From Bispira polyomma (taxonomy: Eukaryota): a DNA stretch of 64,000 bases. The stretch's first letter is position 1. Each line of letters starts with the position of its first letter. Of this stretch, positions 1-38,642 are shown piece by piece. The DNA lies in assembly GCA_965649765.1 (NCBI GenBank), contig OZ287757.1:30504001-30568000 (forward strand), written 5' to 3'. Position numbers and translations under genes: made by a program. Below the pieces are notes generated by a model. The model had not been told where the DNA came from and made no database searches. It was given only the letters and a program-made list of their open reading frames with translations.

Positions 1-3000
1 TTTCTTTCTGACGTTCCTGGTCTTTTGGGTGACCTTGCTATGGCTCCAGTAGTTTTATTCCTGTTAATAGGTTTTTGGCCTGGCTGACGTGTTTTCTGCA
101 CCTGTGCTGACCTGGGCATATTGCGTGGGGCAGCGAATGTACCTGCCTAAGTGGTATCACTTATTCGTAGCGACACTCGCTGGGCTAAAAGCTTGTTGTC
201 ATATAGTTAGACACTACAGGACATGATGCTTGTTGTACCTCAGTAGCTGGGTTGATTAGGAATATACTTGTTATATTGCTCAAGCATCTCTCCATCAACA
301 AGGGCTAGTCAAAGGGCTCCATCCTGTTATGGGTCATAAAGACTCGCTCATAGATGTCTTGGTTATCTGTAATAACTCTATGGGACAATCCAAGTCTTGA
401 TATAAATCCACTGATCATACATTTTTCTACATCCTCTGCATTCTGATGTGGCAATGGAAAACACTCTACTGCTTGGTATAAATGGTCTTAGTATGTCTAT
501 ATGCACTCTTTCAAGTAGTTAACCCAGATAATATTGTTCCAGTGGCGCTTGGGGTTTCACTGTGGCTTTCTTGTTCTTATTGCAAACACTGCAAGATCTT
601 TCAAAAAGCTCCACATCTTTAGATAATCCATAACATATATAGGACATATTTATTCGTGCTATTGTCTTTGTAATCCCCATGTGTCCTATTAGAAGAAGAT
701 CATGATTCAACGACATCACATCCTTCTTTAGACTTTCTGGCACCACAAACAACAGCTTATCACCCAAATCACCACTCCATTGATAGTATAGCAGCTCATC
801 CTGATACACCAGCTGACTTCTATGCAAATACAGATATTTTACAGTTTGACTACACAGTGCAAGAACTTTCTGTTCTGGATCAATTTCAAAAGTTATCCAA
901 TTTATAATTTTCTTTGGACACTCGTCTGCATGCTGTGCTTCATGTAACTGTTTCTTGGTATATCCCTCAACCCAGATAGAGTTGAAATACAAAGAGTTTG
1001 ATTTGACCGCTGATTTTACTGCTAGCGGAACAACGTCATCTACATCTTCATCAAACCTCGACCATTGGTTATGTGCTTTTGTACAGTATTTTCAACCTCT
1101 GCAAGGCAATGTAGTCAGCTTCGATCCGGCCTTATAACAATCCCAAAATTCAGTGTCATCAGGGATTCTTGACATTCCGTCTGCATTACCATGCTTCGCT
1201 ATAGGTCAATGCACAACTGTCCCATCAAACTGACTCAGTTCCTCTCGCCACCTTACTAATTGTTGTTCAATGTACTTGAATCTGAGAAGCCAAGTCAGGC
1301 TGTCATGATCCGTTCAGTGTAAAAACTTGCATTCTTAAAGGTAATGATGGAATTGTCTGGTGAATGCTTCCTGATGCTCGGTATTTCAGAAGAATGTCTT
1401 ACATTGGTAACTGGAGCCTTAGTAGATTTTTTCCTATATGTCCTGTTCACAGCAGGTGGTTGATATGACTTCCTGTCCCCTCTAACATATTGTGAATTAA
1501 TTCTTTTGTTAAACACCTTTTTATAACTGCGTCAATTACGGGTGTAGATGACAGATTACCTGGAAAACTGAGCTGTGATTGAGGTTTACTGACCGGCTTT
1601 ACTTGAGTCATCGATACTGGTAGCTCATACCCAGTCTATTCCAGGTCCTTTTGCCATGCTGATGGTAATGTAGAGTCCATCCTATTTTTTCTGTTTCAGT
1701 TCTGTAACACCAGCTGTCACCTGATTGCAAACCACTTTAGCCTCTTCGCAAAGGATATCCTCCTCGAGTGCCTGCTTCTGATCAACAAGCTGTCCAGCTC
1801 TTGCAATTATATTACCTTTAACTCCTTCATTTGCTGCACACTTTTGATTTGGGCTTCCTTCTCCAGTATATAGCATTCCACGACAGAATCACGCTCTGTT
1901 TTCAGATCAGATAATTTCTGAGATTTATTGAGATCCTCCTGAAGGGAATTACGCTCAGGATTCTGCATTGCTACATCATCCGTTAAAGATGTGTATATTT
2001 GGGATTTAAGGTTATCCACATCCTGTTTCAAAACACCCACATTTTGCATCAAGTTTGAAAAATCTAGATCCATTGTAAACTTCTGGCTTCCTAGTTTGCT
2101 TTCAAGGTCATCGACTATCTGTTCCATGGACAGAATGCACATCGAGATGACACCTATGTCCTTTTGGAGCTCCACAATTTGAGTGTTACTCTGCATATCA
2201 TATTGAACATCATTCAATAAATTCAGTTGTACTCTTTAAAGGCTGGCATCCAGCACCTGAACGTCAGACTTGTTTGATGTGACATGCTGATGAAGTTCTA
2301 TCTGATATGGCCTGTCTGCTCTCTAGGAGATTGAACAGACATTTGCATGACACTTACGTCCTTCTGCCTCCCTCGTGGTGGATTTAATGTCTGACGAAAC
2401 GGCACTGATTTCCTGTTTCATAGTAGCTAGCTAATGGGTAGTTTCCTGAACAACCTGTGTAACTTGGACATCCAGTTTTTTCACATTTTACTGTAAACCT
2501 GCTACTTTCACTTCTGCTTTCTGAGTGTGCGATCTGATGCCACTCAAGTCATTTTCTCCAGGAGCCATTTTCTGTTGGATCTAAATAATTTGTCTTTTTG
2601 TGCAGGCCAATTTATTCGAGACATCCTTTTGGTTTTTCTCCACTTTTATGGTCCAATTCGCCTACCACACCTTCCACCACATCACATTTTTTAGTAACAG
2701 GTTTAATGGCTACACCAAGCCATCCAATGTGTCAGTCTTCTTGCTTACCACATCTAATAACTTAAGTAACTGCCAGTTTGCTTGCCATGGTGTCCAACCA
2801 TGACTCGACACCCATTGACTTGCCCACATTCTGTTGTCCATCACCTGATGTGACGACTTGCTCCTGGGTGACACTCTAGGCAAAGTTCCTTCAACTAGAC
2901 CACCACCTGATGCGACAAATCCCTGTGCCACTACAAATACTGTACTGAATATAGGGCTAACCGAAAATGTCACCATTCCTGAGGTTAACATTGCTTCCTT

Positions 3001-4841: not shown

Positions 4842-4847
4842 ACCCGG
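4842..4847 (+). repeat. Left target-site duplication ACCCGG
   Basis: Identical hexamer at 26553-26558; 6-bp TSDs are typical of Polinton integrases. Confidence 0.95.
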
Positions 4848-5102
4848 AGTAGTAGCGTATTGCAGGATTTGAGGTACCCCCCGGAGGAGTCGTGCCACCC
4901 CCATGATCATGATAAGCCCCCCCGAAGATCTTATAAACCACCCCAATGAGTAGAATCGTGATGAGCCCCCCTGAAGATCTTATAAACCACCCCAAAGAGT
5001 AGAATCGCATGCCAACACGCTGTTCACTCTAAAATAAACACCGGTAGAAGTTGAATGAGTACAAACAAGCACTCGAGTGCAGTCACTCTAAAATAAAGAC
5101 CA
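4848..5102 (+). repeat. Left terminal inverted repeat (255 bp)
   Basis: Reverse complement of 26298-26552, with one mismatch seen by eye (GAATCGCATG vs GAATCACATG). Contains two ~45-bp subrepeats with TATAAA. Confidence 0.96.
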
Positions 5103-5199
5103 AACCTGATCTTAGAAAGGATGTACAACAGAATCATCTACCAAATAAACACCAGTAGAAGTTGAATGAGTATAAACAAGCACTCGAGTGCAGTCATTC

Positions 5200-5451
5200 T
5201 AAAATAAAGACCAGACGAGTTATTTATACACAGTTCCCTGTTGTTTTTGTGTTTCAATACTATTTTAAAATCACAAATTGCTGATCCTCTAATTTCTACT
5301 GTCTTCTCTTCATCACTGTCGATTGTGTATTCAGCCATAGTTATTTTCAGTTAAAATCTCGGAGGATCACTTGGAAATAAATACTGAATAAAAGCACAAT
5401 TTCCTTTTGTGTGTCTTTTATGTTCGAAAAAGACGTCTTCAAAAGAATCCC
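5200..5451 (+). repeat. 252-bp direct copy of internal segment 25423-25674 (5' end of the PC4-like gene plus 3' end of the BIR gene)
   Basis: Near-identical sequence in the same orientation; explains ORF 5138-5338, which starts MAEYTIDSDEEK like 25010-25561. Confidence 0.95.
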
Positions 5452-6131: not shown

Positions 6132-7838
6132 ATGGCTTCAATGTAAGTACGACAAAGTTATTTTGTTTAAATTTATTTAATATATAAAATTAGTTATTGT
6201 GATATTATAATTAGAAAATTTAATACTTGAAACTTTATGAAAATGCAACGCAATTATAATATATATTTATATACTACACAACTATAATTTATTCACATCA
6301 ATCAAATTGATAAATACTTAAGTTTTTTTGTTTTTTTTTTGTAATAGAAGTCAAACTTCTTATAGTCGCAAGATTTTATTTATTTTGTCGAGTCACGGAA
6401 AAAACAAAAATGAATAAAAGCTGATTATATTTTTAAAAATTAAACAAGATTTGTATATATATTTATTTAGGAAGAGAAAAGCAGTAACAGAAGAGAAAGA
6501 GTTATTGACTAGGAAGACAAAGAAAACAAACAGGTAAATAACATTATACCCATTTTGTTATTTAGTAGAAATATGTGTAAATATAAGTACTAACAACACT
6601 ATAAAATACAACATATAAATATTTTCACCAAACCTACTAATTAAACTGTGAAAAAATTGTAGTTAAATTTGAGTTTTAGAGCTTCTTGCTGTGAAAACTT
6701 TAGGGAATATATATTATTTAATAATTTTACATAATTTTAAAGAAAAATAACTTTATCACTAAATTAATTTCCTAATTAGAAAACAAATTCTAAACTTTAA
6801 TAGGTATTTTATCATATTTATAATATTCGTATCTTTCTTTTTACAGTTCCTTGTTCAATGACGACATGAGTGATGAAGTTCACAGTGAGCAGGAAGACGG
6901 TAAAGAGGATTCGGACCTAGAGTGGGTGGAACCCTACACACCCCTTTAAACCACCCAAAATCCTAAAAAGTCTAAACAACCCTCAAAACCCCGAAAACCT
7001 AAAATTATTCTTGAATCCGGAGCCTCCAACGTGGTAACCGGCTATCAAGCTTTAGCCACAATGGCTCACGCCATCCAACCTCCAGCATGCAGTGTTGTCA
7101 ATAAACCTCTGCAGAAACAGATGTCTACAACAACAAGAGCAACAAACAACAATACAACCACAAAGTGAGTATATTTAACATCTTAATTATGTGTAATTTT
7201 CTTTAATGATGAAATAAGTAATTCATATTTTTTTGTGAGTATATTCATAATCATGTAGGAAGATAATTGAAAATAATCTTTGTATTTTGGTCTTATTCTA
7301 ATTATAGTTACACCTAATAAAGGAGGAAAGAAGTAAGTATATAAAATTTTGTGTTTTATTAACAACTAATCAATTTAGTTATATATTTTTGTTTTTTTCT
7401 TTTTGCTACAGTTATGCGTTTGTGGAAATCATCAATGATCACTTCACCATGAAAAAAGACACAGACGACGGTGAATACACCATCATGACAGAGTACAGAG
7501 ACAGTGGACTAAGGCTTTACCCCGAACATTGTGAGGGTGTACTCAGGAATTTGGATGTGCTTGTACAATCCGTAAATAGAGTCAAACAAGACCGTCGTGT
7601 GAACCTTAGGGTTGATATAGCAGACGACGGTCTTAAAGCTTGTGTAGATACCAACCACTCCTACATATCGTTTAGGAGGTTTGAGAAGTTGTTCAAAGGA
7701 GGGGATTACCCACTCCCTGGAAAAGGATTTGTAGTACAAAAAGATGAAATAGATGTTTTTGTACAAAACCTCAGAGACTTTTTACAAAATGTAGAAAAAA
7801 CAAAAACAAAACGTACATTTCACAGGAGAAGTGTTTAG
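6132..7838 (+). pseudogene. Four-exon gene (6132-6142, 6471-6533, 6847-7164, 7412-7838; 272 aa) with basic/acidic disordered N-terminus and C-terminal PC4-like ssDNA-binding fold; one in-frame TAA at 6947-6949
   Basis: Three GT-AG introns (donors gtaagt, gtaaat, gtgagt; pyrimidine-rich acceptors), all phase 2. Exons sum to 819 nt. C-terminus YISFRRF...PGKGFVVQKDEIDVF resembles PC4 IDIREY...PGRKGISLNPEQW. Confidence 0.75.
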
Positions 7839-8040: not shown

Positions 8041-10154
8041 CTATAAATCAGTTTCATGACTTCCGTAACTCATATTTTCCAAGAAAATTGGTGATGTCTC
8101 CCTCCTATTTCGTTGTCTTTTGTGGTAACATTTGAAGAGACACAAAGTAACTCCAACACTAGTAAGGAATACCATGAAAGACAATCCAGTTGTCAAAGCT
8201 ATAACCCATTTATCTGTCAAAAGAGATATATTGACTGTTACATGTAACATATTATTGCAAGCTCTTACCGTAAAAGTTTGAATCATAAAAAAATTTGAAC
8301 ATTTTCGGTTATCCGAACGTTTTGTTTATTCGAACACTTTAAATATTTCTGGTTAACAGATCCCCAAAATGTTACATCAATCTTCAAATTTCAAAACTAA
8401 TTTGTACATCAAAACATTTTAGGTCAATCAAACATTTTGGTTTAACAACTCTCTAATGCTTGAAGAGACACAAACTTACTCCATCACTATTAAGGAATAC
8501 TACGAAATCCACTTGTTAAAGATCTAACCTATTTATCTGTCAAAACAGAGATGTATATGTCATATGTAAAATATCATTCCAAGGTCACATCATAAAAGTT
8601 AGAATCTTTTGGTTTTCCGAACGTTTTGTTTGACCTAAATTTTTCTCGGAGAACCGATATTCTATTCACAAAACTATGAAAATACATATACTAAAGCTTC
8701 TTTTAGGAACTTCAAAAGGCTTAACCTAATAAAATATTTGGTTAACAGGACAGTTCCAACATTCTATTCGTAAAACTATGAACTAAACAGAATATCTATA
8801 TTGAAGCTGTCTTTAGGAACTTTAACAGGCTTAACCTCATCAAATGTTCGGTTAGCCGAACAGTTTAATATTCTATTTTATAAAACTGCGAACTAAACAG
8901 AATACCTATACTGAGGCTTCTTTTAGGAACTTCATTGGGTGTGGAAGAACTTTTTGTAGAGCCATCCGTTATCAAAGTAAAGACAGAAGTGGTCATCTCA
9001 GTTGTTTTGGACGGTTCTAGAGTGCTTTGGTTTTCTAAAGACAAACACTTATCTTCATAATATTTACCTGCTTTTTATTGAAACACATTTATTGAAACAT
9101 ACATATACCGAACAAGTTCGGATAACCGAATATCCGAACATGTTCGGATAATCCGAAAGTTTGGTTAACCGAATATGTTCGGATAACCGGTTATCCGAAA
9201 TTCGGTTATCCGGAAATTTGATTATCCGAACATGTTCGGATATTCTATTCATAAAACTGCGTACTAAACAGAATACCCATACTGAAGCTTCCTCTAAGAA
9301 CTTAAAAACAAACAGTTATCTTCATAATCTTTATCTGTTTTATTGAAACAAACTCATAACTCAGTGTAATATAAGAAAATTAAGCGAAACTGGTAAAAGT
9401 CTTTCAACAAAAATTATTTCACTTTAAATTTGTTTAGTCACTATTTTTTAAAGATTTACCATGTTCAGTTGAAAGGTTAATGTCAGCAACTGTGGTTGTC
9501 CGAGATGGTTCTACACTTTCTACACTAAGTGATGTAGCAGACAAATCAGTTGTCTTGTCTACCGCACTGGTTGTAGCAGACAAACTGCTTGTCGCAGTCG
9601 ACAAACTAGTTGTTGTGAAAGCAGTCCCAACACTTGATATTTTACTGGTCAAGGCTTCGGTTGAAAGAACTTTTAAAAAGATTAAACAAAACATGCATAC
9701 AATCAATTATTATTCAATATACGTCAAATTTTAACGACAAGACAGAAAGACTTTTATCAATTCAAAACACTTGAATATTTCTATCATATGTACATATTTT
9801 GAAATGGGATTATTAAATGAATAAAAACCAACCTGCGCATCTACTTAATTCCAGTTTAACTTTCATTTGAGATTGTTTTTCATGAACAAGACTACAGTTA
9901 ATATTAACTGTCTGGTCACCCGAGAATAACTCCAAATTCTTGAATTTATCCAGGAAATCCAATTTTGTTACAAAGGAATTAGTAATAAAGAAGTATAACA
10001 ACTTCTCTGGATGAACCACACTAACATCAGGCTCACCAAAAATGTTCAAGCAATTGATTTGCCTTTCAAAACAGAAACATTTGTCATCTTTGAAGCAGTC
10101 ATTACTACAAACTTTTGCAATTAGCAACAACAGAAAAAACACGGAGACATACAT
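8041..10154 (-). CDS. Four-exon type I membrane glycoprotein (10154-9833, 9669-9460, 9034-8906, 8213-8041; 277 aa): signal peptide, LRRNT-like Cys cap, Ser/Thr mucin stalk, TM helix, short tail ending ETDL
   Basis: Three GT-AG introns, all phase 1; the spliced frame is open for 834 nt. It joins ORF-track fragments 9813-10154, 9434-9706 and 8041-8286 plus an unlisted 129-nt exon (ENQSTLEPSKTTEMTTSV...). Confidence 0.8.
9105..9243. repeat. Cluster of short palindromic repeats (TATCCGAACATGTTCGGATA and variants) in intron 2 of the membrane-protein gene
   Basis: Perfect 20-bp palindromes at 9131-9150 and 9223-9242, with degenerate CCGAA/TTCGG units between them. Confidence 0.85.
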
Positions 10155-11937: not shown

Positions 11938-12590
11938 ATGGAGATTCATACTCAGTCTAATTAGTCTTTACATACTCAGCCTAATTAATCTTTAAAAGAA
12001 AATTGTTAATTACTAGGAAACTGTCCATATCCAAGAAAAATGTAAAAGCTTACATTGAAAACACAAAAAATCTCAAAAATTCTGTTAAATTAAAATTTAC
12101 AGTGGATAAAAAATTCCCCGGTGTAATTCGTTTTTGAAATAAACTTTCAAAGGAATTACACCTCGGAATTTTATCTCGGAAAGAAACATGCTCATCCACT
12201 TGATAATATTTCAGATTAGTGGCTTCTACTATTCAATTTAGTTGTCAGTCTGTTTGACATGGAGATTCATACTCAGTCTAATTAGTCTTTACATACTCAG
12301 TCTAATTAGTCTTTAAAAGAAAATTGTTAATTACTAGGAAAATGTTAGAGAAACTGTCCATATCCAAGAAAAATGTAAAAGCTTACATTGAAAACACAAA
12401 AAATCTCAAAAATTCTGTTAAATTAAAATTTACAGTGGATAAAAAATTCCTCGGTGTAATTCATTTTTGAAATAAACTTTCAAAGGAATTACACCTCGGA
12501 ATTTTATCTCGGAAAGAAACATGCTCATCCACTTGATAATATTTCAGATTAGTGGGCTTTCTACTGTTCAATTTAGTTGTCAGTCTGTTT
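11938..12590. repeat. Tandem duplication of ~320-335 bp
   Basis: ATGGAGATTCATACTCAGTCTAATTAG at 11938 and 12259, each followed by near-identical sequence to GTTGTCAGTCTGTTTGAC. Confidence 0.9.
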
Positions 12591-12954
12591 GACGGCATCG
12601 TAAGGTTATTAGCTTCACTGTCTGTAGTAGTAGTAGTAGTGGTAGTCTTCTTCATCTTTAAACTGAAAATATAAAAAAAGAATAAATAATTACTTTTAAA
12701 ATATCCAAATTTTAGATAAGTTATTTTACAATAACAAACTTCTTTTTCGAGTCTATTATGTTGGAAAATGTTAACTGATAAATATGTAAACTCCTGGAGA
12801 AAGCTAAAGTTGATTATATTTACTTAACACTTACACCCATGCCAAATTGACCAAATATAGGAAGGTGAAGTATCAGTTAAACTTTAAAGTATGAGTTAAA
12901 ATTTAACATTCCTGTTAATAAGTCATATTTAGCATCAGTAATTTATTCATACTT

Positions 12955-14097
12955 TTAAACCACTGACCACTCTTCATGGTTAACGGCGTCTCTTGAAGTT
13001 ATACTTTCAAAGGGTTGTAGTACTTCTCGGTTCTTGGTTGTCGGTTTTGTTATTGGTCTTGAAGTGTTGTACTGAGCTGGTGTTCTTAACTCTGGTACGA
13101 TGGATACTCGGGCAGGTTCATCGGAATTAAACAAAACGGATCTCCTCGCTCGCATTCGAGCTTGGATTCTACCAATCCTGAAATGAAATAATAAAACAAA
13201 TATTTACTGGTGTTCTTAACTCGGGTATGATAGATACTAGGGCAGGTTCATCGGAATCAAACAAAAGAGATCTCCTCGCTCGCATTCAAGCTTGGATTCT
13301 ACCAATCCTGAAATGAAATAATAAAACAAATATTTACTGGTGTTCTTAACTCGGGTACGATAGATACTAGGGCTGGTTCATCGGAATCAAACAAAAGAGA
13401 TCTCCTCGCTCGCATTCAAGCTTGGATTCCACCAATCCAGAAATGAAATAATAAAACAAATATTTACTTAGAATTGTTTACGCAAATTCTATCAATCAGA
13501 ATATAAAATAATGAAACAAGTAACTACTTATGGTTATTGTGTGAAATATTACCTCTCTTCGTCTCGTCCTGTAGTGTAATGCCCCTTCCAACACAGAAGA
13601 TTACGCGTTTTCACATACTTCAGAGTCCTTCGAGTTCCTTCTATGATCAAACCTATGTATGTTAGAACGGCTATAGCAATAATAATCCAATTTGGTATGT
13701 TTATTTCATTAGAAATATCGATATCTGAATTAACCAAACTGTCGTCTTTGTTTTCCGTAGAGTCGTTATTTGTGTTATGTTTGCTGTCAACCGAATCGTC
13801 TTGGCAACCGCCTATCATTTCTATATGGGTATAGTCGGGACAGTTTAATGTAACACTATCCACAAATCTCACACTTTGTAAGTTCGGAAAAGCAAATAAA
13901 ACTTTTTTTACATCCACAATAGAGTCTGTGAACACGGCAGTTAAATATCTGACTGAGATAGAGAAAACCGTTCTTGAGTCTATGTTTTCACATTTTATAC
14001 TCGCTAAATCACACCCACAACCCGTGGGGCAATTCAACACTCCCATCACAACACAGCTTATAAACAACAAAACATAAATATTCCTTTGGAAAACCAT
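12955..14097 (-). CDS. Spliced type I membrane protein (exons 14097-13553 and 13177-12955; 255 aa): signal peptide, LRRNT-like cap, acidic stalk, TM helix, long cytoplasmic tail
   Basis: CPTGCGCDLASIKC cap; TM WIIIAIAVLTYIGLII; phase-2 donor GAG AG|gtaat joins acceptor catttcag|G ATT GGT in frame with ORF 12955-13155. Confidence 0.75.
13076..13468. repeat. Three tandem 130-bp copies of an intron-end/exon-start unit
   Basis: Acceptor positions at 13178, 13308 and 13438 (the last mutated CAG>CTG). The two distal copies carry a CGA>TGA stop. Confidence 0.9.
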
Positions 14098-14302
14098 CGT
14101 TAAACTAGATAAAATCAGTATATTGTTTTTATTTTTCCTCTAAACTTTTCTGCATAAACAGATCAAATTTACCTCCAAAATGTTTCACTCTAAAAGTTTT
14201 CTGCGTTTACTTTAACCGTTTAATAAAACAGTTTTGCGAAAAGTTAGGTGATTATTGAAATTGTTTGTCTGATTTTTGTTGTTTTATTTTTCATTGTTCC
14301 AG

Positions 14303-17300
14303 TTAAGACAGCACAAGAGAACTGAGACAATTCCAGGAAAAGAAAAAGCTATTGATACTTGCAACACGCTAGTTGAGGATCTGAAAGCAAAGAAAGTGTC
14401 AAAACAAGAGTGGTCCTGCAAAAAGTGTGGGATAAAGTTTCAACAACTACAAAAATGGATAAAACATAGAAAGAGTTGTGAAGGATTATTGTGTACTCCT
14501 AAACTGAAAATTCAGTGTGTTAATTGCAAAAAATTCTTTTCTCAAAAGTCGAATCTAAAAAGACATCAGCTAAAATGTGACCTTACAGATGGTAAAGAGC
14601 CTACCTTTAAATGTGTGAAATGTACGAAGGTGTATATATTGAAATCTAATTATTTGAAACATCTAAAGAGTTGTGGGTTTTTAAATTCTCTCACTACAAA
14701 AAAAGTTTGTTGTAGTATTTGCAAGGAAAAATTTTTCAGTAGTAAGGATTTATACTCCCATAGATTAAATCAACACGGTGGTGGAGAGCAAAATATTGAC
14801 GATACTGGTAATTCAGACAGATTTCAGTTAAATTCTCCGCCTTGGTTGAATGAAGCTGGTGAAAATATAAATCCAGAGTTAGAAAAAATTTATAAAACAA
14901 ATGAATCACACATATTCGCTCCTCACCAAACAGATAGTGTTGTGAAAAAATATAATTTTCCTACTGAAAATTTGAAAGGAGGGGTTGAAGAAATTATGAA
15001 ACATATAGAAAAAATATTTCAAAATCAAAACTGAGGATTCAAAATTAATATTAATTTAGATTTTATTCTGAAGAACAAGAAATCAGGTAAATACAGATAT
15101 TACATTCCTTATGCTAGTTCTTATCTATTTCCGAAACCTTACATCATTTCCAGACATACCAATTTGAGAGTTTTGAAAAACAAACTCAAGAAATTAAACC
15201 CCAGTGAATATATTTTGAATAACAGACCCAACAGTCGGTATATTCCAGAATATATAACCAATATAAATTTTGATGTGAGCTTAATGGATTACGTATTAGG
15301 TAATCCTTCAGACTTCCCAGAATTTGTGAAAAACTGTAGAAGCGTTTTTACATTTTTAAAGCCTCCAAAAACAGGAAAAACATACACTGACAATATGTGT
15401 ATTTTTCGTTGTCTTGCATTTCACGAGATAAAAAATAGAAAGAGTTTAGACACTTTAACTAGAAGTAAGTTTTTTGAATGGCTTGATTATAAATCTTACA
15501 AAGAACCAAAACGTTTTAAAGGGGTGACATTAGAAGATATTCCCGATTTAGAAAACTGTTTTCAAATCAATATTTCTGTTTTCCAGCTTTTAGAAAATTC
15601 ATGTGTAATCACACATTATAATTCTAGAGGAACTTTTGACAAATCCATAGATTTAGATATGCAAAATCATCATCTATCATATGTCAATAATTTGAGCTTG
15701 TACGCCAAAAAGTATCAATGTCAAGCATAATGTTTTTCAAGAACTTGAAAAGTATAACATTTTTGTCTCAGTAGAAGACAGATTTTGTCCTTATTTTATC
15801 ACTTTTGACTTTGAGTCAATTCTTCAAAAGAAAAGTCAAGTCAAAACTCAGAAGTAACAAAATTAATGTGGAGAGAAAAACACATTCCAATATCAGTCGG
15901 TGTAGGGTCTAATGTTGAAAATTTTGAGGAAGGAAAATGTTTTGTAGATTTTAATATGGATAAATTATTAGCAAAAATGGTTGAATATATGGAACAGATT
16001 TCAAACAAAGTCAAGACCTTACAAATGTTTAAATACCATTCATGCTTTCAAGAACTAGATAGACTTTTAAATGAGTTACAATCACTTGAAACACAAAAAG
16101 ACATTGAACAAAATAGTGAAAATTTTGGAAGTGAAGAAGATGAAGTTCCTTCTGTTTCGTTTCAAAAAAGATTCAAAAAGCACAACTGTTTCGACAAAGC
16201 TATTGATAATTTAATAAAAACTAATAATCTTCAAGTAGAATACAATAATTATAGTGATGTCAGTGAATCTGAAGACGATATTTTTGAGAATGAAGAACAA
16301 GAGAATTTCCTTGAAAATATCTTTCATGAAAAACCTCAAGCTTGTGAAGAAAACATAGCTCACAAATTGTGCTCTAGAACTCGTTTCTTAAAAACTGTGA
16401 GAAAAAAAATCCAAACTTTGAAAGAGAGACTAGAATCTTATTGTGAATGCACACCAGTCTTAGGCTTTAATTCTTCAAATTATGATCTTAATTTAGTCAA
16501 ATCTAAACTGTGTAAACATTTGAAACTTGATGATACACAGAACAATTCTTTTACAGTGAAAAGAAATAATGCTTATTTAGTTATAGCAACCAATACTTTG
16601 AAATTTTTAGATATCAGTCATTATATAGCCCCTGGATTTTCTTACTCTCAATTTTTAAAAAGTTATAATGTAACAGAGCAAAAAGGATACTTTTGTTATC
16701 AATATCTCTCAAAACCCGAAGTTCTTGAAGAAACAAATTTACCTCCTTATGAAGCCTTTTACAGTGATTTGAAATCTTGTAATGTTTTAGAACGTGACTT
16801 GTTAGATTGGTATAAAACAAACAACATACAGTTAGTACAGCAAGATTTAGAATTCAACTCGTATGATAATCCCTCTAAATATGTGAATTCATCTATTTCT
16901 TATTTAAATTTGACAACTGAAAAATGTTTAAAACTTTGTTGTTTGTGTGAAAAGATCCAATGTGTGTGTAATAGTAGACCTCTTACTGGTTTTGATAATT
17001 ATTTAGATTTATTAAAAATTTGGAAAGTGAATGATATGAAATCAGTTGAAGATTTATTAGTCTGGTATAATTTGAAAGATATCAACCCCTTTACAGAAGC
17101 AGTTGAAAATTTACAAAAGTATTACAAAGAAAATAATATTGATCTTTTTAAAGATACAATTTCAGTGCCTGGAGTAGCTAGACAAATGCTATTTAAATCA
17201 AAAGATGCTAATTTTCAGTTATTTGATCGTCAAAATGCAGACCTTTACAGAAAAATAAAGCAATCCATTTGTGGGGGTCCTTCTATAGTGTTTACAAGAG

Positions 17301-19592
17301 CAATGAAAGAAGGACAGAAATTAAGGGGAGGTCATACAAAATGCGAAACTATCGTCGGCTATGACGCGAATAGTCTTTATCCAACCTCGTTACAAAATAA
17401 TATGCCCTGTGGAACTGTAGTAAGGAGACATGAAAGCACTGGTTATAAACCAGAAGTTCAAACAAAATATTTAGACATGTTTATTTGGATGGATCGGGTA
17501 TCAGAACTGAGACAGATAAAAATTTTACACAGATTAAATAGTGGGAAAGAACATTATGTGATGGGTTTCAGAGTTGATGGTGTATTTGGTAATGAAATAT
17601 TTGAATTTTTAGGAGATTATTTTCATGCTTGTCCTAAATGCACTAACAAATTAAAGTGTAACAAACCAAAATCTTGGTTAGTTAAACAAGAACAAAGATA
17701 CCAGAGAACTATTCTAAGAAAAGAATATTTAGAAAGTTTAGGATATACTGTAAATGAAATTTGGGAGTGTGAATATAAAGAAAAGTTTAAAAATTGTGTT
17801 CAACACATTCAAGAAAGATATTTACCCAAATATTACAGTTCTCATAAAAACGGGTTGTCATTAACAAAAGTATTAAAAGACATTAAAAACGGTGAATTAT
17901 TTGGTTGTGCCAAAGTTGATATTGAGACTCCTTCTAAATGGACTGAAGATTTTGTTCAGTCAATCTCACCTCAGGAATATTACTCTGAATTTAGCCCTAT
18001 ATTTTGCACCACTGACGTACCTATGAGTGTTATTGGTGAACATATGACAAATCACATTCAAAATAATGATTTATCTATGGAGAGTAGGCGATTATTAGTA
18101 GGCGGGTTGAAAGCAAATAAGATTATGCTTGCTACACCTTTACTACAATGGTATTTAAAACACGGAATTTTAATAACTAGAATTTATGAAGTCGTAGAGT
18201 TTTCACCCATACCTTGTTTCGCTCAATTTGTTTCTGACGTCACAGAAAGTCATAGGATCGGAGACAAATCTCCTCATTTAGCTTTAATAGGGCAAACTGC
18301 AAAACTTTTGAATAATTCCGCTTATGGATCATGTCTTATGAATAAGGAAAACTTTATGAACATCAAATATGTGAAAGGTGACTCCAGCGAAAATTGAAAT
18401 AAATAAACCAGAATTTCGAAAAGCTACTTTGTTAGATGAAAGATACTATGAGATAGAAGCAGCCAAACGCAGAATTTGTTTAGATGTACCAATTCAAATA
18501 GGGTTCTTTATTTTAAATTATGCAAAATTACGTATGTTAGAATTTTACTATGATAATTTGTGTGAATACATTCATAGAAATAGATTTGAGTGTATACAAA
18601 TGGACACTGATAGTGTGTATTTTGCAATAGCTGGAAAGTCTCTTGAAGACGTAGTTTACAAGCATAAAAAACATGAATTTCAAAGAAAAATCAAAAATAA
18701 TTGTGGTGATTTTGAATTAAAAGCTGATAAAGACCACTATTTCCCCCGAGATTGCTGTACTAAGCATAAACAATACGATTTAAGAACACCGGGACTTTTC
18801 AAAAAAGAAAGTTCGGGAAAAGAAATGATTGCTTTATGTTCTAAAACATATGTACTAGCTGAAGAAATTGGATTCAAACTCTCCTGTAAAGGTGTTAATA
18901 AGAAATCGGTTAAAGATCCTGTCAAAATATTTCAAGACGTTTTGATAACACAAAATGTCCAAACAGCTTTAAATAAAGGTTTTAGAGCTAAAGACAATTC
19001 GATGTTTACATATTCTCAAGAAAGAATAGGTTTTAATTATTTTTACTGTAAACGCAGAGTTTGTGATGACGGAATACACACAGTACCTTTAGATTTGGTT
19101 TTGTCACCGTGGCCAAATTATGAAAGGCATGTGTTTTTCAGAGATTTTACTAACCCTTTATGTATTTCTTACAAATTTCCTTGTAGATATAATGAGAGAA
19201 CATTTGAATCAATAGAACATTTTATGTATTTTGCTTTTGCTCGTTTTCACAAAGAAAAATCTATTGCACTTTTAATTCAAAAATCATTCCACAAAACCAA
19301 AATTCTACAATTACTGAAGAATATAAAGATAAGTTTTATTTGGTTTGATAAACTGAGAGAGCTTTTACAACTGAGTCTAAAGGAAAAATATGAACATTGC
19401 AATTTGTTTAGACAAGCACTTGATAATATTTTGTTTCAAGAAATTATCTTTGCTGACAAGGATAAGTATTTAGGTTGTGGAATGGAATGTAGAATAGCCG
19501 AACTAACCGATAGTGCAAAATACCCTGGTCAAAATGTACTGGGCGAACTGTTGATAGAGTTAAAAAATACAAAAAACACACACAATGTTTAG
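14303..19592 (+). pseudogene. polB: Protein-primed family B DNA polymerase polyprotein (zinc fingers, terminal-protein region, vOTU-like protease, exonuclease, polymerase with VSR-like insertion, C-terminal NADAR-like domain); disrupted
   Basis: Motifs FDFES (~15800), GFNSSNYD, GGPSIVF, YDANSLYP, KLLNNSAYG, MDTDS, TPGLFK. In-frame TGA at 15032-15034; frame breaks at ~15730, ~15855 and ~18380. Confidence 0.95.
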
Positions 19593-19957: not shown

Positions 19958-20401
19958 TTAACCTGTGTGTTTATAAAAGAGATAAACCAACTGATCATTG
20001 TACAACAAATCTTTTGAAAACATATTTAAAATGTTTGACATGGAAAAACCTCTAACTCTAAAATAACAAAAAAACAAACAATATTGACCACACAAATTTG
20101 AAACATAGCTTTGACACCTCTTGACATTGAATTTGTACTTATGGCTTTGTAAGCTCATATAAGACTTTAAATAGAGATCTGGAAATTTACCAATAGGATC
20201 AAAATATTCAGTGACTTCATCATTGTGATTGTAAAGCACAACCCAATGACTTCCTGCTTTCTCACTTGTGTCTAGATTGACTATGTAAAATCTAGGTTTT
20301 TTTGATTGTAAAGGTAATAAATCCTTTGGTAAGACTCCTCCATAACTTTCTGAAATGTAGGGGTCCTTTAACATATACCGCTCCAATTGAAATGTATTCA
20401 T
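19958..20401 (-). CDS. Adenain-like (C5 family) cysteine maturation protease
   Basis: IVNLD...GSHWV, EYFDPIG and Q...SNLCGQYC give the His/Asp/Gln/Cys catalytic set; adjacent to the MCP. Confidence 0.95.
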   Translation of the reverse strand: MNTFQLERYMLKDPYISESYGGVLPKDLLPLQSKKPRFYIVNLDTSEKAGSHWVVLYNHNDEVTEYFDPIGKFPDLYLKSYMSLQSHKYKFNVKRCQSYVSNLCGQYCLFFCYFRVRGFSMSNILNMFSKDLLYNDQLVYLFYKHTG

Positions 20402-21678
20402 TATTGAATTTTGATATTTCTAGCTTTATCAACCAATACCATTCCTGGAAAAATTGAATAAGCAATCACCATTAAAGATGTACTAGTGGCAGAACCGAAC
20501 TTGAGCTGTAACCTTGTGTGTCCTTTTTTAAGTTTTCCCATTAACTCATTGTCTGTTTCTCCTTGAATGTCAAAAACGAAAAGACCATACCCATTTGAAT
20601 AATCAGCTCTACTAATAAAATTTCCAGCGTGGTGTGGGTATTTATTTGAGAATAAAGTAAGGTATGACGAGACATAATCTCCTGTTGAAAAATTAGGTGT
20701 TAGAGCTTGCTGAGGTACACTTTGTCCATCTACACTTAGTTCTAAGTAATTAACACTCTCATTAACAAAATTGTAAGGGTTTAATAAAAAATCACCAGTG
20801 TATGCGTCTGTTTTTACAATACCTAAGATAAGTTTTGAGGGTACTTCACCATGGAAAATATCATCTGATGAAAAGGTGCTTACACCTTGAGGAATAACAA
20901 AAGTTTTTATGTTGGATTTCCAAATAGGGTAAAGAGCTGGAGCGTATGTTAAAGCTTCATTATGAGCTAAGATTATAGAATCACTGACTTTCACATGACA
21001 AGCTTTAAAAACAGCTTCTGTTATTGTTACTTTGTAAGCTTCTAAATCTCTTGTCATCATTACAAATTTATCAGAAGAAGGGAATAATTTAATTATTATT
21101 TTAACCCCGTTTAAAATTGGTCTTTCTTGCTGAGATATATCCATATGAATAGGTTCTTCTAAAGTGACTTCTTTACCGGAAGCTGTAAAAGATGTCCTAG
21201 CTGTCAAACCAGGGTTATTTCCAGGTGGGGTTGCATCCATAACGCCTGAATCCTTGTAATATAATTCACTTTGAAGTTGAGATTCTTTTACTTCCATTCC
21301 GTATTTTAAAAGCACATCAAAAATTGATTTATAAGGGTAGTTTACTCCTACATCCGGAGAAACAACTTTATCTTGAAGCATGACGTCGACTTGACGAAAA
21401 AGAGAGTGTAAACTTAAATTTACTAAACCCACCGCATTATCTGCTGCAATCGGAGTTCCATCCGATTTAAGAATTTTTGCTTTTATTTTTAATCGGGATT
21501 TATTTAAATCAATATATTCAGCACTGGTGCCTGGTATTCGAAATTCTATAGTAGAACCATGTGAAATAGTAGAAGTGGATTGGAATTCTATATATTGGAT
21601 TTCATCTACAGCCGCTTCTACATAAGGAGCTTGAAAAAGTGCTAATTTAGACGAATAAGACAGTTCCTGATCACTCAT
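20401..21678 (-). CDS. Major capsid protein (double jelly-roll; Polinton PY / 'hexon')
   Basis: Intact 425 aa with Polinton MCP hallmarks (IEFRIPG...EYIDL, LHSLFRQVDV, YPYKS, ESQLQSELYYKD, NPYNF, GYGLFVFD). Confidence 0.93.
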   Translation of the reverse strand: MSDQELSYSSKLALFQAPYVEAAVDEIQYIEFQSTSTISHGSTIEFRIPGTSAEYIDLNKSRLKIKAKILKSDGTPIAADNAVGLVNLSLHSLFRQVDVMLQDKVVSPDVGVNYPYKSIFDVLLKYGMEVKESQLQSELYYKDSGVMDATPPGNNPGLTARTSFTASGKEVTLEEPIHMDISQQERPILNGVKIIIKLFPSSDKFVMMTRDLEAYKVTITEAVFKACHVKVSDSIILAHNEALTYAPALYPIWKSNIKTFVIPQGVSTFSSDDIFHGEVPSKLILGIVKTDAYTGDFLLNPYNFVNESVNYLELSVDGQSVPQQALTPNFSTGDYVSSYLTLFSNKYPHHAGNFISRADYSNGYGLFVFDIQGETDNELMGKLKKGHTRLQLKFGSATSTSLMVIAYSIFPGMVLVDKARNIKIQ

Positions 21679-22021
21679 TTTGTTTGTTTTTTAGAAATTC
21701 TTTTCTTTTTAATTTTAGAAGACTTCTTTTTCGAAGAAGTTTTAGTAACACTCTTTCCTTTCTTTCGTCGTTTATTTGATTTCTTTTCCTTTTTAAGACT
21801 GAGTTAATAATTTGATATTCTTTGGTTTAAATACACCGGCTTCTTTGAGCTTCCTCTTTAAATCAGATTTGGCTTGAGCCACTACAGCCTGTGTGGGCGT
21901 TATCATTTTAATTTCACCGCTTCCTACTTGAGGTTTAAATACATAAATTCTTCGTTGATATGGAATATTTCCATTAGCCATGTCTGTAAAATGTTTGGTC
22001 CAATAATTATTATCAGTCATT
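21675..22021 (-). CDS. Small basic virion core/protamine-like protein candidate with QVGSG protease-site motif; Lys/Arg-rich tail interrupted near 21793
   Basis: MTDNNYWTKHF...PQVGSG...; sequence at 21680-21790 encodes a K/R/S-rich run beyond the called stop; located between penton and MCP. Confidence 0.5.
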
Positions 22022-22424: not shown

Positions 22425-23554
22425 GAAAATTTTTTTATTTCATTTTCATCTATCCAAGTATCAAATTTAGGTCCCCAACCTTTCCAACGAACAAGTAGGC
22501 TTATTTTACCTTTAATTTTTTTTTCTGAACTATCTTTTCTATATCATACTGAGTGTCTTGACTTACATTAACCTTTTGAAGTTCAGAGGTAGAAAACTTA
22601 TCAATTATAGGCTCGTTATGGAAATCTTTTACTTCATATTTCTGAATACCTTGATTTAAGTCTCTTGTGGATATAATGAATAATTCGTCAGTCCATTTTT
22701 GATCTGATTCTTTGTTATAGACACTTTGTAGTTTTCTCAAGCGAACAATATCACCTATTTTGAACTTGTATAAAGGGGTATTTCTTTGTGATTTAGGTAA
22801 AGTGGTTTTTTTTCTTGAATTTGAGTATTTTAGGTAGTTTTTTTTCATACTGGATTTTCCATAAAATAGGGTTTGCAACTTCAAGAGCTTCTTTAGGAGA
22901 CATATTAATTGTACTATGATATGTTTTATTATAACTATCAGTTAAGTTTTGTAAAACATCAATCCATTTCCTAGTTTTGTTATATTCCATATATCTAGCT
23001 ATTTTCATTTTTAAGGTACGAATAACTCGTTCCGCATAATTAGCTTTGGAGTGTTCTGAAGTTACAATGTGTTTCACATTATTTTCTTTGATGAATTTAT
23101 CACCTAATCCTAAGTACTCTGTCCCACGGTCGCTTCTCAGGACTAATGGTTTGTTTTCTTTAAAAACAAGTTTCAACGCATCCACCATTTCTTTTGAAGT
23201 CAATGTTTTAAGTGGTACCGTGTACAAATAATGAGATAAAATATCTATAAACACGGCTATGTATTTGTAACCTTCGTTTTGTGAAGCAAACTTTTCATAA
23301 TGGGCTGTATCTGTGTCTTGCATATAGCCCTTAAAGGGTACTATAACTTTTGGTCTCTTGAATTTTCTGATAACTTTCCTATATAGAGTGTAGCTATTTT
23401 GTTTACTTAACCAATTTTGAATAAATCCTTTAGAAATATCAGACCTTTCCTTTTTAACTAAATTATAAAACTTTTGTAACCCTGCAAACGAACTTGGGTT
23501 TTATGGATTAAAATACATTTTTTGCAGATAATCTTCTTTCTCAGAATCACCCAT
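22421..23554 (-). pseudogene. Retroviral-like (rve) integrase with C-terminal chromodomain; disrupted
   Basis: Starts MGDSEKEDYLQKMYFNP*NPSSFAG (stop at 23501-23503). DDE residues in QDTD, SDRGTE and AERVIRTLK. Frameshifts near A-runs at ~22840 and ~22520. Ends LVRWKGWGPKFDTWIDE. Confidence 0.95.
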
Positions 23555-24203: not shown

Positions 24204-24800
24204 TCATTGATATACTATTATAGGTAATTCAGTTGGAAAAATATTAGTTCTTAATCTGTAAGCTTCGTTACTTTTAGGGGATAAATCAAGAATCAAATAA
24301 CCGTAGGGATTTGTGAGAGCGTCAATATAAGCTTGTTTCAACAAACTTTTCATACCTATTTGTTGTGATAAAATATTTACTTGTTGAAGATTTCTGGGGT
24401 TCTTTAACAAAACGGTATAAGCTGTATTCAAAGTAAGAGTTCTGGAACATTTACCTTGATAAAACAAATTTTGATTTATGTAAATAACTGTAATATTGTT
24501 GTGGTGACTTATTTGGGTAAATAACTTTTCAGCTTCTTTGCTGTTGGCTACTTCGTGTTGAAGGTCATCTAAGCATATTATATTATGATTTGAGTCAAAT
24601 ATAGTTCTTATTTTTTCCAAATTTGGCAAACCTTCCACAAATTCTATGTTTAAATTTTTTTCTATGTCATCAAATATAGGCTGCCAAACAGAATAACAAT
24701 AAAGAATTTTTGTAGGTGGATTTTCAAACATAATATCTTTTGCTTTTAACAATTTATACAACCAAGTAGTTTTACCACTACCAGTCATTCCTGATATCAT
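24204..24800 (-). CDS. A32/FtsK-like genome packaging ATPase
   Basis: Walker A GMTGSGKT, Walker B ICLDDLQ, SHHNNITVIYINQNLF, PYGYLILDL, RLRTNIFP. The frame extends upstream (EVVKFECPSTW) to an ATA at ~24836 that may be a mutated start. Confidence 0.95.
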   Translation of the reverse strand: MISGMTGSGKTTWLYKLLKAKDIMFENPPTKILYCYSVWQPIFDDIEKNLNIEFVEGLPNLEKIRTIFDSNHNIICLDDLQHEVANSKEAEKLFTQISHHNNITVIYINQNLFYQGKCSRTLTLNTAYTVLLKNPRNLQQVNILSQQIGMKSLLKQAYIDALTNPYGYLILDLSPKSNEAYRLRTNIFPTELPIIVYQ

Positions 24801-25009
24801 CCATGTTGAAGGACACTCAAATTTAACAACTTCTATGTTAACACGTGTAAACCAAAATAATTAATGAAGAGAATTACTTTATTAGGAAATAATATATATA
24901 TAACTATAAACATACAAAACCAAAACTACGATATTCATTTAATCAAGTATTTATACAAACTAAAATCACACAAATCATACCAAGGAAAAGTCTGAGCGTA
25001 TTTTAAAGT

Positions 25010-25561
25010 TTATAAACTATTCACTGTTCTTTGGTGTTCTTTATCCCAGTCTTCTGATTCGTTTTCCTTGACTTCTGAATCTTGTTCTTCTCCATCAGGC
25101 TGAGAACATAGAGGACATGAGAAAAAATCTTCTTGGTTTTGATGTGTATAGAAAATCTGGGGGTGATCTTTTTCGATTTGATTAAAAATATCCAATAACC
25201 TAAACCACTGAACGTATTTCAAAGATATACCATCCAATGTTGCTAGTTGTTGACCTCCAAATTTGAAGAATCTACGAATTTGTATACATTGAAATGGAGA
25301 CTGTAAATAAACAAAAACATCGTTTTCAAGACAAACATAAAAATTTGTTGGTTCTTTTTTATGACATAACCTAATGAGTTTGCTTGATAATTGTTCTTTA
25401 CTTTTTATCAAGTTAAAATATTTAAAATAAAGACCAGACGAGTTATTTATACACAGTTCCCTGTTGTTTTTGTGTTTCAACACTATTTTAAAATCACAAA
25501 TTGCTGATCCTCTAATTTCTACTGTCTTCTCTTCATCACTGTCGATTGTGTAGTCAGCCAT
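25010..25561 (-). CDS. PC4-like ssDNA-binding/transcription cofactor protein with CPLC motif and acidic tail
   Basis: CIQIRRFF...LATLDGISLKYVQWFRL closely parallels the PC4 consensus IDIREY...KGISLNPEQWSQL. Confidence 0.7.
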   Translation of the reverse strand: MADYTIDSDEEKTVEIRGSAICDFKIVLKHKNNRELCINNSSGLYFKYFNLIKSKEQLSSKLIRLCHKKEPTNFYVCLENDVFVYLQSPFQCIQIRRFFKFGGQQLATLDGISLKYVQWFRLLDIFNQIEKDHPQIFYTHQNQEDFFSCPLCSQPDGEEQDSEVKENESEDWDKEHQRTVNSL

Positions 25562-25573
25562 AGTTATTTTCAG

Positions 25574-26017
25574 TTAAAATCTCGGAGGATCACTTGGAAA
25601 TAAATACTGAATAAAAGCACAATTTCCTTTTGTGTGTCTTTTATGTTCGAAAAAGACGTCTTCAAAAGAATCCCATTGATGTAAAATCACCTTACACCAT
25701 GCGCATTTACAGCTGTCTCCTATTCCTGTGTAAAGAAATCCAGCTTTAGCTAATTGTTCAGGACGGACTGGGTGACATTTAGGCCATGTCTTAAAAGTTT
25801 CAATTCTCTTGTCATATTTATAAAAATATTCTTTCCCAAAGGAAAATTCTGGGCATGTATCCCTTTGACCTCCTAAAAATATAGAAGATCCTCTGCTTTC
25901 TTTCTCCCAACAAGATTTAGAAGAAGAAGCTGGTGTACAGAGTGAAAATCCACTGGTAACAGCTTTATTACAAAATAACCCGTCGCTGGTTGAGTCTGAA
26001 ACGTCTGTTCTTTCCAT
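25574..26017 (-). CDS. Single-BIR inhibitor-of-apoptosis-like protein (no RING)
   Basis: RIETFKTWP...LAKAGFLYTGIGDSCKCAWC...W......EHKRH...CAFI is a complete CCHC BIR signature. Confidence 0.95.
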   Translation of the reverse strand: MERTDVSDSTSDGLFCNKAVTSGFSLCTPASSSKSCWEKESRGSSIFLGGQRDTCPEFSFGKEYFYKYDKRIETFKTWPKCHPVRPEQLAKAGFLYTGIGDSCKCAWCKVILHQWDSFEDVFFEHKRHTKGNCAFIQYLFPSDPPRF

Positions 26018-26037
26018 GATTCTGTAAATTTATCAAT

Positions 26038-26075
<38 letters not shown>

Positions 26076-26297
26076 ATTAGAAACAAGCACAAAAAAAAAA
26101 AAATCCTAAGTATATTATTGGTTAGTTTTTAACCAATTAAATTATAGCAATTATAATTATATAATAAAATTTATTATATTCAAAATGTTGATTTTGATGC
26201 GTGATTCATTAAACCTAAATAAAGGAAAATACATATCTCAATAGACTAAAATCCTTGGGTTGCTTGTTTGTACTCATTCAACCTTTACATCTTTGTC

Positions 26298-26552
26298 TGG
26301 TCTTTATTTTAGAGTGACTGCACTCGAGTGCTTGTTTGTACTCATTCAACTTCTACCGGTGTTTATTTTAGAGTGAACAGCGTGTTGGCATGTGATTCTA
26401 CTCTTTGGGGTGGTTTATAAGATCTTCAGGGGGGCTCATCACGATTCTACTCATTGGGGTGGTTTATAAGATCTTCGGGGGGGCTTATCATGATCATGGG
26501 GGTGGCACGACTCCTCCGGGGGGTACCTCAAATCCTGCAATACGCTACTACT
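26298..26552 (-). repeat. Right terminal inverted repeat (255 bp)
   Basis: Reverse complement of 4848-5102; followed by TSD ACCCGG at 26553-26558. Confidence 0.96.
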
Positions 26553-37620: not shown

Positions 37621-38642
37621 ATATTCATAAACATAACTATCAGAGCAAAATTTGCACGAGAAGCATGAACCTGGATTACAACTTGATTTCTTTTAATCAA
37701 TACTTCTTTAACTTAAACCTCTGATCTATGAAAGGATAAAACAGTGGTGTGTATCCAGCAGGCGAGTATTTTTATAAAATACCTTTTCTTGAGATATTTT
37801 AATAGATTGTTTTTACTGTAAGTAATTATTTTGCTTCTCTTGCCTAATTTTGGCTTGTCAGAATCACTTTTTAAACTGTTTTAATTTTTCTATAATACAC
37901 TATTGCATCTTCTTCTCAGAATCATGGATGGACTGAAACTTTTCTCAATGGACCACTCACAGAAATCCACACTTGTACTTTAAAATAAAATAAATAAACG
38001 TGATGTGTTTTCAGGGAAATTTTAATACATGTATCTGTACCACTGCTCTTCTGGAGTTATTTAGTAAAAGTTACAATGCAAATATCAACTGTTGTTTTAC
38101 TTCAATCTCAAGCTTGACTCTGCAAGATAGTAAGATGAAAATTCAACCAAAACAGTATATTTTCCGATAAAGTGATGCAAAATGCAAGTGGAAATATTTT
38201 ATGTTTATTATGTTTTATATTCCTATTGATTTGTACAAATAAAACAAGCTTGGTTTAACTTATAGTAGGTCATGTATGCTTATGCTGTAGAGATAAAGTT
38301 TTACCAATTATGGTTGGCACCTCTGGTAAAAGGTGCTTGTCTATTGTTCCATCAGGCCTTATATTATTTGCCACAATAAAGTACAAGCCTAATGACTTTA
38401 TTTTAACAATTGCGAAATGTTTAAAGAAAACAATAAACAAGAACGTGGTTTAAACATATCTTCTGTAAAAATGGTATGATCTTGAGATAGTCACAGATCA
38501 AATTAGGTCAATTAAAAATGTTTCTAATGGTATGTTATTGCAACGTCCACTGTGACAGCATTATAATTATAACGAGGGGTAAGCTTATATATATTTTGTG
38601 AAAGGGTTAAATAATGTGTTTGCTTTACAAAAAAGAATTTAC

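Follow-up and report, generated by a model that had tools for sequence, protein, structure and literature searches.

The E3 region of adenoviruses, a related and non-enveloped virus group, encodes non-structural type I surface glycoproteins that bear tyrosine sorting motifs (the CR1 proteins and RID), whilst class I PDZ-binding motifs occur in both HPV E6 and adenovirus E4-ORF1. Platelet GPIb pairs a single-LRR head with a mucin stalk. In the available portions of PMC11589680 and PMC9818000, SNX17 is described as reading NxxY/F motifs and SNX27 as reading S/T-x-hydrophobic C-termini with acidic residues nearby. Polintons (Mavericks) of the adintovirus type carry accessory genes that include PLA2X, GasderminX, cupiennin-like, Oncoid and IAP/Bcl2 genes (PMC8502044, in part), and there is scarcely any observation of Polinton virions or of their somatic life cycle in animals, according to the part of 10.1101/2023.08.22.554363 available.

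We analysed a 64,000-nucleotide stretch of the Bispira polyomma genome (contig OZ287757.1 of assembly GCA_965649765.1, positions 30,504,001 to 30,568,000 of the forward strand), referred to here as the window, in which an initial annotation had reported a virus-encoded, mucin-like membrane glycoprotein with an LRR-type cap. This gene, here termed the mini-LRR gene, sits in an element of 21.7 kb that is bounded by terminal inverted repeats and flanked by a 6-bp target duplication. The main features of this element are as follows (window coordinates):

4848 to 5105, no strand: left terminal inverted repeat, starting AGTAGTAG; target duplication ACCCGG at 4842-4847
14273 to 19592, plus strand: family B DNA polymerase region with C2H2 fingers and a NADAR-like end, interrupted here (polymerase motifs read from sequence)
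19958 to 20419, minus strand: adenain-like protease (Peptidase_C5, E 0.0014, below cut-off)
20401 to 21690, minus strand: putative major capsid protein (feature search 0.98 to a cluster with a DJR-like domain in 24% of its members)
22501 to 23500, minus strand: retroviral-type integrase, split here between two frames (rve, E 2e-8)
24204 to 24860, minus strand: packaging-type ATPase (P-loop matches; Pox_A32 E 0.02)
25574 to 26029, minus strand: BIR-domain (IAP-like) gene (E 4e-18)
26295 to 26552, no strand: right terminal inverted repeat, with 99% complementarity to the left one; the target duplication recurs at 26553-26558

The ends are those of a Polinton, with 258-nt arms, AG-rich termini and ACCCGG on both sides. 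Because of these inverted ends, the 6-bp duplication and the genes for polymerase, protease, capsid, integrase and ATPase, the element is identified as a Polinton/Maverick. Neither its polymerase nor its integrase is uninterrupted in this copy. The capsid frame of the window had neither a Pfam match nor a PDB sequence match. Adintoviruses are elements of the same kind with the same gene set, the IAP-like gene included (PMC8502044, in part).

Several further observations were made on the element and its surroundings. The polymerase (15815-19592, plus strand) contains an insertion resembling a nuclease (REase_MTES_1575, E 0.003), and its C-terminal part is NADAR-like (E 8e-8); a mollusc pPolB2 has been reported with a VSR insertion (10.1101/2023.08.22.554363, in part). 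A 252-nt direct repeat (99%; 5200-5451 and 25423-25674) places a copy of the start of a PC4-like gene beside the left terminal repeat. A spliced-looking gene without a Pfam match (6950-7838, plus strand) converges on the mini-LRR gene, and its last exon adjoins the latter in many lineages. Elsewhere in the genome, several loci (L100-L108) harboured two inverted copies of the left part of the element face to face; examples of such palindromic deletion derivatives lie at C1 17.12-17.14 Mb and at C11 22.65-22.66 Mb. Inspection by eye of the sequence beyond the element picked out a frame of 378 aa with motifs that look like those of a trypsin-like protease (36556-37692, minus strand), together with Gypsy-like gag/protease and integrase remnants (31874-33258, plus strand, and 519-1091, minus strand). 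A 15-bp repeat that returns at intervals of 3.77 kb between 44121 and 55483 suggests a large tandem duplication.

The mini-LRR gene is predicted to comprise four exons, read from the minus strand in the order given:

9833 to 10154, minus strand: exon 1, predicted signal peptide and mini-LRR ectodomain (N-cap, two LRR-like rungs, Cys87/Cys106 end cap, N86 sequon)
9460 to 9669, minus strand: exon 2, predicted Ser/Thr-rich stalk, phase 1-1
8906 to 9034, minus strand: exon 3, predicted Ser/Thr-rich stalk, phase 1-1
8041 to 8213, minus strand: exon 4, predicted TM helix, juxtamembrane Cys and basic patch, P-I-F/Y..N-x-x-Y motif and C-terminal ETDL

These exons (322 + 210 + 129 + 173 nt) amount to 834 nt, or 277 codons and a stop. 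All four are open and all junctions are in phase 1 with a GT donor and an AG acceptor, which bears out the intact 277-aa spliced frame first proposed, the product being a predicted one. The introns, of 163, 425 and 692 nt, are lower in G+C (0.23-0.30) than the exons (0.33-0.43). Exon 1 begins with a hydrophobic N-terminus (12-residue Kyte-Doolittle mean 2.8), has cysteines at 20, 26, 28 and 35 (C-x5-C-x-C-x6-C) and includes the LDFLDKFKNLELF segment; exons 2 and 3 provide 111 whole codons with a Ser+Thr content of 48% and 43%, respectively; and exon 4 encodes a 19-residue hydrophobic stretch (mean 1.97) before the protein ends in ENMSYGSHETDL. The description in the initial annotation was accurate, and Cys 87, Cys 106 and the sequon at N86 in exon 1 can be added to it. 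Taken together, a signal peptide, a Ser/Thr-rich stalk and one TM helix predict a mucin-like type I membrane layout, the signal peptide, helix and O-glycosylation being called from hydropathy and composition.

The introns themselves contain remnants of coding sequence and repeats, identified by sequence comparison:

8460 to 8582, minus strand: decayed duplicate of the TM exon in intron 3, 79% identical, with in-frame stops
8681 to 8934, no strand: 110-bp tandem repeat with decayed copies of the end of exon 3; a further partial copy lies near 9240-9340

Intron 2 also contains a dense array of short repeats, both inverted and tandem (TTCGGATAA/ATCCGAAC units; 9100-9250).

The exon boundaries are widely retained amongst related copies. 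Of 47 full-length exon-1 rows, 44 have a phase-1 GT after the last cysteine; for the TM exon, a preceding phase-1 AG is present in 72 of 81 rows. Splice sites are retained down to approximately 33% protein identity. Ser/Thr-rich phase 1-1 exon candidates, varying in both sequence and number, were found in 29/29 loci printed, such that the mucin-like stalk originally described was present in every lineage looked at. Relative to the window copy, dN/dS ranged from 0.12 to 0.24 for exon 1 (five of 12 pairs measurable, the other seven saturated) and from 0.06 to 0.32 for exon 4 (9/12 pairs measurable); the mini-LRR gene is under purifying selection. Whole-exon dN/dS gave no sign of the positive selection that might result from an immune arms race. 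In each of three clade comparisons, the cytoplasmic tail was less variable than the head (pN 0.045, 0.173 and 0.125 versus 0.112, 0.210 and 0.294). Because the splice sites and the Ser/Thr-rich phase 1-1 exons are conserved and the gene is under purifying selection, the four-exon model is well supported, splicing and expression being predicted. In three read runs that were checked, introns were covered as well as exons, and none of the three predicted joints was among the 15 junctions listed; the runs behave as DNA, with no bearing on expression.

Searches of the 1.035 Gb genome placed exon 1 at no fewer than 140 sites, i.e. at least 140 genomic places, with 32-100% identity (150 of 229 candidates listed, 10 second-piece rows being merged), and exon 4 in at least 150 genomic rows. 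Taking either an exon-1 place or any of 11 exon-4 places chosen by hand to mark a mini-LRR gene, we found such a gene within 35 kb of 91 of the 99 capsid places listed (from 873 capsid candidates), versus 0.7% by chance; likewise, 83 of the 140 exon-1 places lay near a capsid among the matches listed, again versus 0.7% by chance. The identities of exon 1 and capsid were closely correlated (Spearman 0.91 over 77 pairs; 82 places entered). An exon-1 tree had weak deep support with long-branch warnings and was set aside. When 29 stretches around low-identity copies were inspected, a Polinton core gene was present in 21 and other element genes in one more, whilst five of the remaining stretches had >83% DNA identity to element-bearing loci. 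Far homologues, found by way of two outside homologues, adjoined polymerase, capsid, ATPase or integrase genes in all 20 places fetched, and the capsids of these far lineages were 45-50% identical. The mini-LRR gene is therefore a standing accessory gene of the Polinton, which belongs to the element and has been kept across many lineages. That it is element-encoded, as initially supposed, agrees with the inverted ends and target duplication as well as with this linkage, and the homologues inspected were Polinton-linked, only two loci (L082 and L083) being unlinked.

Both of these unlinked loci look decayed, L082 being without a Polinton gene in 80 kb and L083 without one in 40 kb. L082 (G000:C4 near 57.649 Mb), taken together with L114-L115, is a lone head exon with a next best relative at 47%; its stalk is repeated and contains stops, and downstream lie two TM-like exons that resemble each other. 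An old relic, a domesticated copy or a donor are candidate readings of this locus.

Beyond this genome, a representative search returned 17 matches, 15 of which were short, first-exon-like proteins from other assemblies, mostly ending near C-P-G; the two long matches (P0004 and P0011) were set aside as chance. ENA was the source given for the 10 matches looked up. Protein database searches with exon 1, the exon-1 alignment and the tail alignment retrieved no longer homologues, and are weak negatives. No relatives of exon 1 or of the capsid were found in viral contigs, nor were tail relatives found in metagenome contigs, and phage records likewise yielded no relatives.

An alignment of 34 head sequences demonstrated that C26 and C35 are invariant and that C20 and C28 are present in at least 90%. 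With this alignment as input, the head was modelled with a pLDDT of 92 and a pTM of 0.80, as a short parallel sheet with two helices. A wide structural search was led by LRR proteins, namely LRIM1 (VIA Z 7.4, rmsd 2.5, 80 aligned), TrkC (Z 6.8) and TLR3 (Z 6.6), with the GPIb chains at 5.3-5.4 (3rfe Z 5.3; 8wfs_c Z 5.4), all of these Z values being middling and under 8. Searched against the PDB (E<=10), the head profile matched LRR proteins in 40 of 40 cases (best E 0.003), its positions 24-80 weakly matching the N-termini of VLR and FLRT2. An atlas feature search returned LRR clusters at 0.89-0.90, which is a lead only. In Pfam there was no LRR match for the window protein, and one of the 34 members matched LRR_4 (E 0.042), the consensus being degenerate. 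The LRR-like head with an N-cap proposed at the outset accordingly draws support from profile, model and structural search together, each of which is weak singly; of the structural checks suggested for the ectodomain, the model and the LRR-led list were in favour, whereas Foldseek against the PDB and viral models returned nothing at E<=0.001. On these models, the head is likely to be a degenerate and very short extracellular LRR of approximately two rungs, in which the N-cap has four Cys and the end cap two.

The tail contains, in addition to its C-terminal motif, an NxxY motif that was absent from the initial annotation. Of 81 exon-4 rows, 76 reach the tail; NxxY was present in 74 of these and a class I end (S/T-x-[LVIF]) in 67, compared with 5.9% of background frames, though as the tail copies are kin neither 67/76 nor 74/76 is a set of independent counts. 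The 67 class I ends comprised ETDL (40), ETDF (10), DSEL (9), SSEL (4), DSEV (2) and two singles. More telling than the counts, amongst these nearer-lineage tails the codons differ at the end motif and a 2-residue indel falls between NxxY and the end. In the tail alignment Tyr49 and Asn46 are invariant. The 19 far-lineage tails, by comparison, ended in DSDW (10), EEEF (4), DSEF (2) and DEVM (1), with two that look cut short; strict class I ends (S/T-x-[LVIF]) were thus limited to two of the 19, and the tyrosine motif is rearranged there, with P-I-Y-A/V-N in the tail. The class I PDZ-type end at first emphasised is hence kept in the nearer lineages despite indels and codon changes, but is lost from most far tails. 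As read from these alignments, an acidic stretch with a hydrophobic last residue and a tyrosine motif are general in the family, and a strict class I end is not. Adaptors such as SNX17 and SNX27 are named here by motif only, from mammalian work, and short motifs of this type fit many adaptors. Mimicry of the SNX17 tail, with direct Retriever binding, was also considered, in that NxxY lies at -11 to -8 as in SNX17; it was rejected because the tail departs from the RICT consensus [ILV]-x-[DEQN]-x-x-L, position -6 being Ser here and the Thr at -3 being tolerated yet insufficient (PMC11589680, in part).

A second gene of this type, absent from the initial annotation, lies 3.4 kb upstream of the mini-LRR gene:

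13549 to 14094, minus strand: first coding stretch of a paralogue predicted to encode a mini-LRR type I membrane protein, with likely onward splicing from a GT near 13551

The head of this paralogue matched the mini-LRR head profile (E 3e-6, probability 88%) and a TM helix is present; its model reached a pLDDT of 77, with a best VIA Z of 5.8 to LRIM1. The paralogue was represented by at least 150 genomic rows, and a likely later exon falls within 12461-12823, the frame of which resembles unspliced tails in L073, L074 and L081. In six of 20 far loci (L158, L160, L163, L165, L166 and L167), a paralogue-type frame had M-x-L-R-S-G-K/R near its C-terminus. MxLRSG is a chromatin-binding motif named for LANA and IL-33 (PMC4958301, in part); it was not seen in the window element, and a chromatin-binding-like motif is odd on the tail of a membrane protein. 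It is doubtful, albeit conceivable, that the two genes constitute an ancient mini-LRR receptor module equivalent to an invertebrate counterpart of adenovirus E3, in which one protein would hijack endosomal recycling (through NxxY and the PDZ-type end) to control a host receptor and the far-lineage paralogue would signal from membrane to nucleus. If true, this would be direct evidence that the elements live as cell-infecting viruses managing host immunity.

For the mini-LRR protein itself, we tentatively favour, with less than even confidence, a non-structural surface glycoprotein of which the LRR head binds a host partner and the NxxY/PDZ-type tail is routed by endosomal sorting adaptors. An O-glycosylated stalk would lift the head above the glycocalyx; NxxY may be bound by a PTB/FERM adaptor (SNX17, for example) and the acidic S/T-x-hydrophobic end by a PDZ protein (for example SNX27), which could keep the protein and its bound partner in circulation between the endosome and the cell surface. 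As a net result, a host receptor (immune or entry) would be removed, masked or held where the element is active, an effect that may be likened to that of adenovirus E3 glycoproteins. The earlier interpretation, of an immune decoy, glycan shield or superinfection-exclusion factor, is partly retained here: its element-encoded origin, LRR-like head, mucin-like stalk and, for the nearer lineages, PDZ-type end have stood, whereas a strict class I end fails in most far tails and a pure glycan shield leaves the conserved head and tail unexplained.

Other functions were weighed against the same evidence. An adhesion or cell-contact protein, aiding passage between cells (e.g. from blood cells to the germ line) with the PDZ-type tail setting its position at a junction or pole, would accord with the resemblance of a single-LRR head and mucin stalk to parts of platelet GPIb-IX amongst the structural neighbours (3rfe and 8wfs_c), with the many germ-line entries in this genome and with two paralogous surface proteins that travel together. 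This is nevertheless unlikely, as the Z-scores are middling, a shared fold shows no function, and one far lineage has, in the stretches examined, a single such gene beside the ATPase. A signalling mimic, the phosphotyrosine tail of which would recruit PTB/SH2/PDZ adaptors and keep the host cell alive or dividing alongside the IAP of the element, could account for the invariant Tyr49 and Asn46, the P-I-Y-A/V-N of far lineages and the presence of a BIR gene in the same element; we consider it quite unlikely for a tail of only ~30 residues with no catalytic or TIR-like domain, in which the Pro of NPxY is missing in most lineages and the same motifs are explained by sorting.

A role in the virion had been set aside at first on the premise that Polinton virions are non-enveloped. 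This premise is open to doubt, given that a fusogen is encoded by nematode Mavericks, the particles of which may have an envelope (10.1101/2022.07.12.499685 and 10.1101/2023.08.22.554363, both in part), although no fusogen-sized frame was seen among the open frames of the element in the window. Should particles acquire host membrane, the type I topology would suit a virion membrane protein for attachment, yet this is improbable: the protein has no large class I-III fusion ectodomain, its head being 90 residues that model as LRR-like, and the intron-bearing gene falls outside the capsid module and is most conserved in a tail of host-adaptor motifs. Passive host cargo or chance frames with no role for the element can be considered largely refuted and very improbable indeed. 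Intron-bearing cargo genes are known in nematode Mavericks (10.1101/2022.07.12.499685, in part) and the lone copy L082, without a Polinton gene in 80 kb or a close relative, might be read in this way; selection, splice-site conservation, co-divergence with the capsid and presence in lineages with capsids only 45-50% identical all argue against it, and the L082 stalk is decayed with stops, no tail motif having been found with this copy.

A non-structural surface glycoprotein thus remains our tentative preference, and the mini-LRR genes constitute a real and conserved Polinton accessory gene family, apparently undescribed so far and akin to the type I surface modulators of viruses. Polintons were not found to be described with an LRR membrane protein in the literature searched, which included the available parts of 10.1101/2024.03.25.586562, 10.1101/2022.07.12.499685, 10.1101/2025.04.19.649669, PMC10294476, 10.1101/2023.10.06.561300 and 10.1101/2023.08.22.554363. 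As ORF-based annotation misses spliced accessory genes, the family may be overlooked elsewhere. The conserved surface gene likely lets the Polinton alter the surface of the host cell, and whatever the head binds would indicate which cell type, receptor or immune pathway is concerned. A selected surface protein is without obvious use to a purely intracellular transposon, and therefore argues for cell-to-cell or host-to-host biology.

Amongst described elements, the adintoviruses differ in that their accessory list, in the part of PMC8502044 available, is without an LRR or type I membrane glycoprotein; the words 'leucine' and 'splice' are absent from its main text, and its unnamed Adintoc families could include the mini-LRR first exon. 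The nematode MFUS-1 likewise combines a signal peptide and one TM helix in a Maverick, and nematode Maverick cargo includes intron-bearing genes near the terminal repeat; however, MFUS-1 is an 866-aa class III fusogen, in contrast to a 277-aa protein with an LRR-like head, and the nematode cargo is variable, whereas the mini-LRR gene is kept across lineages (10.1101/2022.07.12.499685, in part). GPIb-IX, VLR, FLRT2, LRIM1 and Trk, the structural and profile neighbours, have a Cys-capped extracellular LRR such as is predicted for the mini-LRR head, which differs in its approximately two rungs, reduced two-Cys end cap and degenerate consensus, at 8-20% identity. Viral PDZ ligands and the cargo tails of SNX17 and SNX27 share the S/T-x-hydrophobic C-terminus, acidic neighbours and upstream NxxY; unlike in HPV E6 and E4-ORF1, the motif here is on the tail of a membrane protein and is not universal in the family, and this protein therefore looks like cargo, not a soluble competitor. 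The adenovirus E3 glycoproteins, from which the mini-LRR head differs in ectodomain fold, would seem to offer the best functional analogy.
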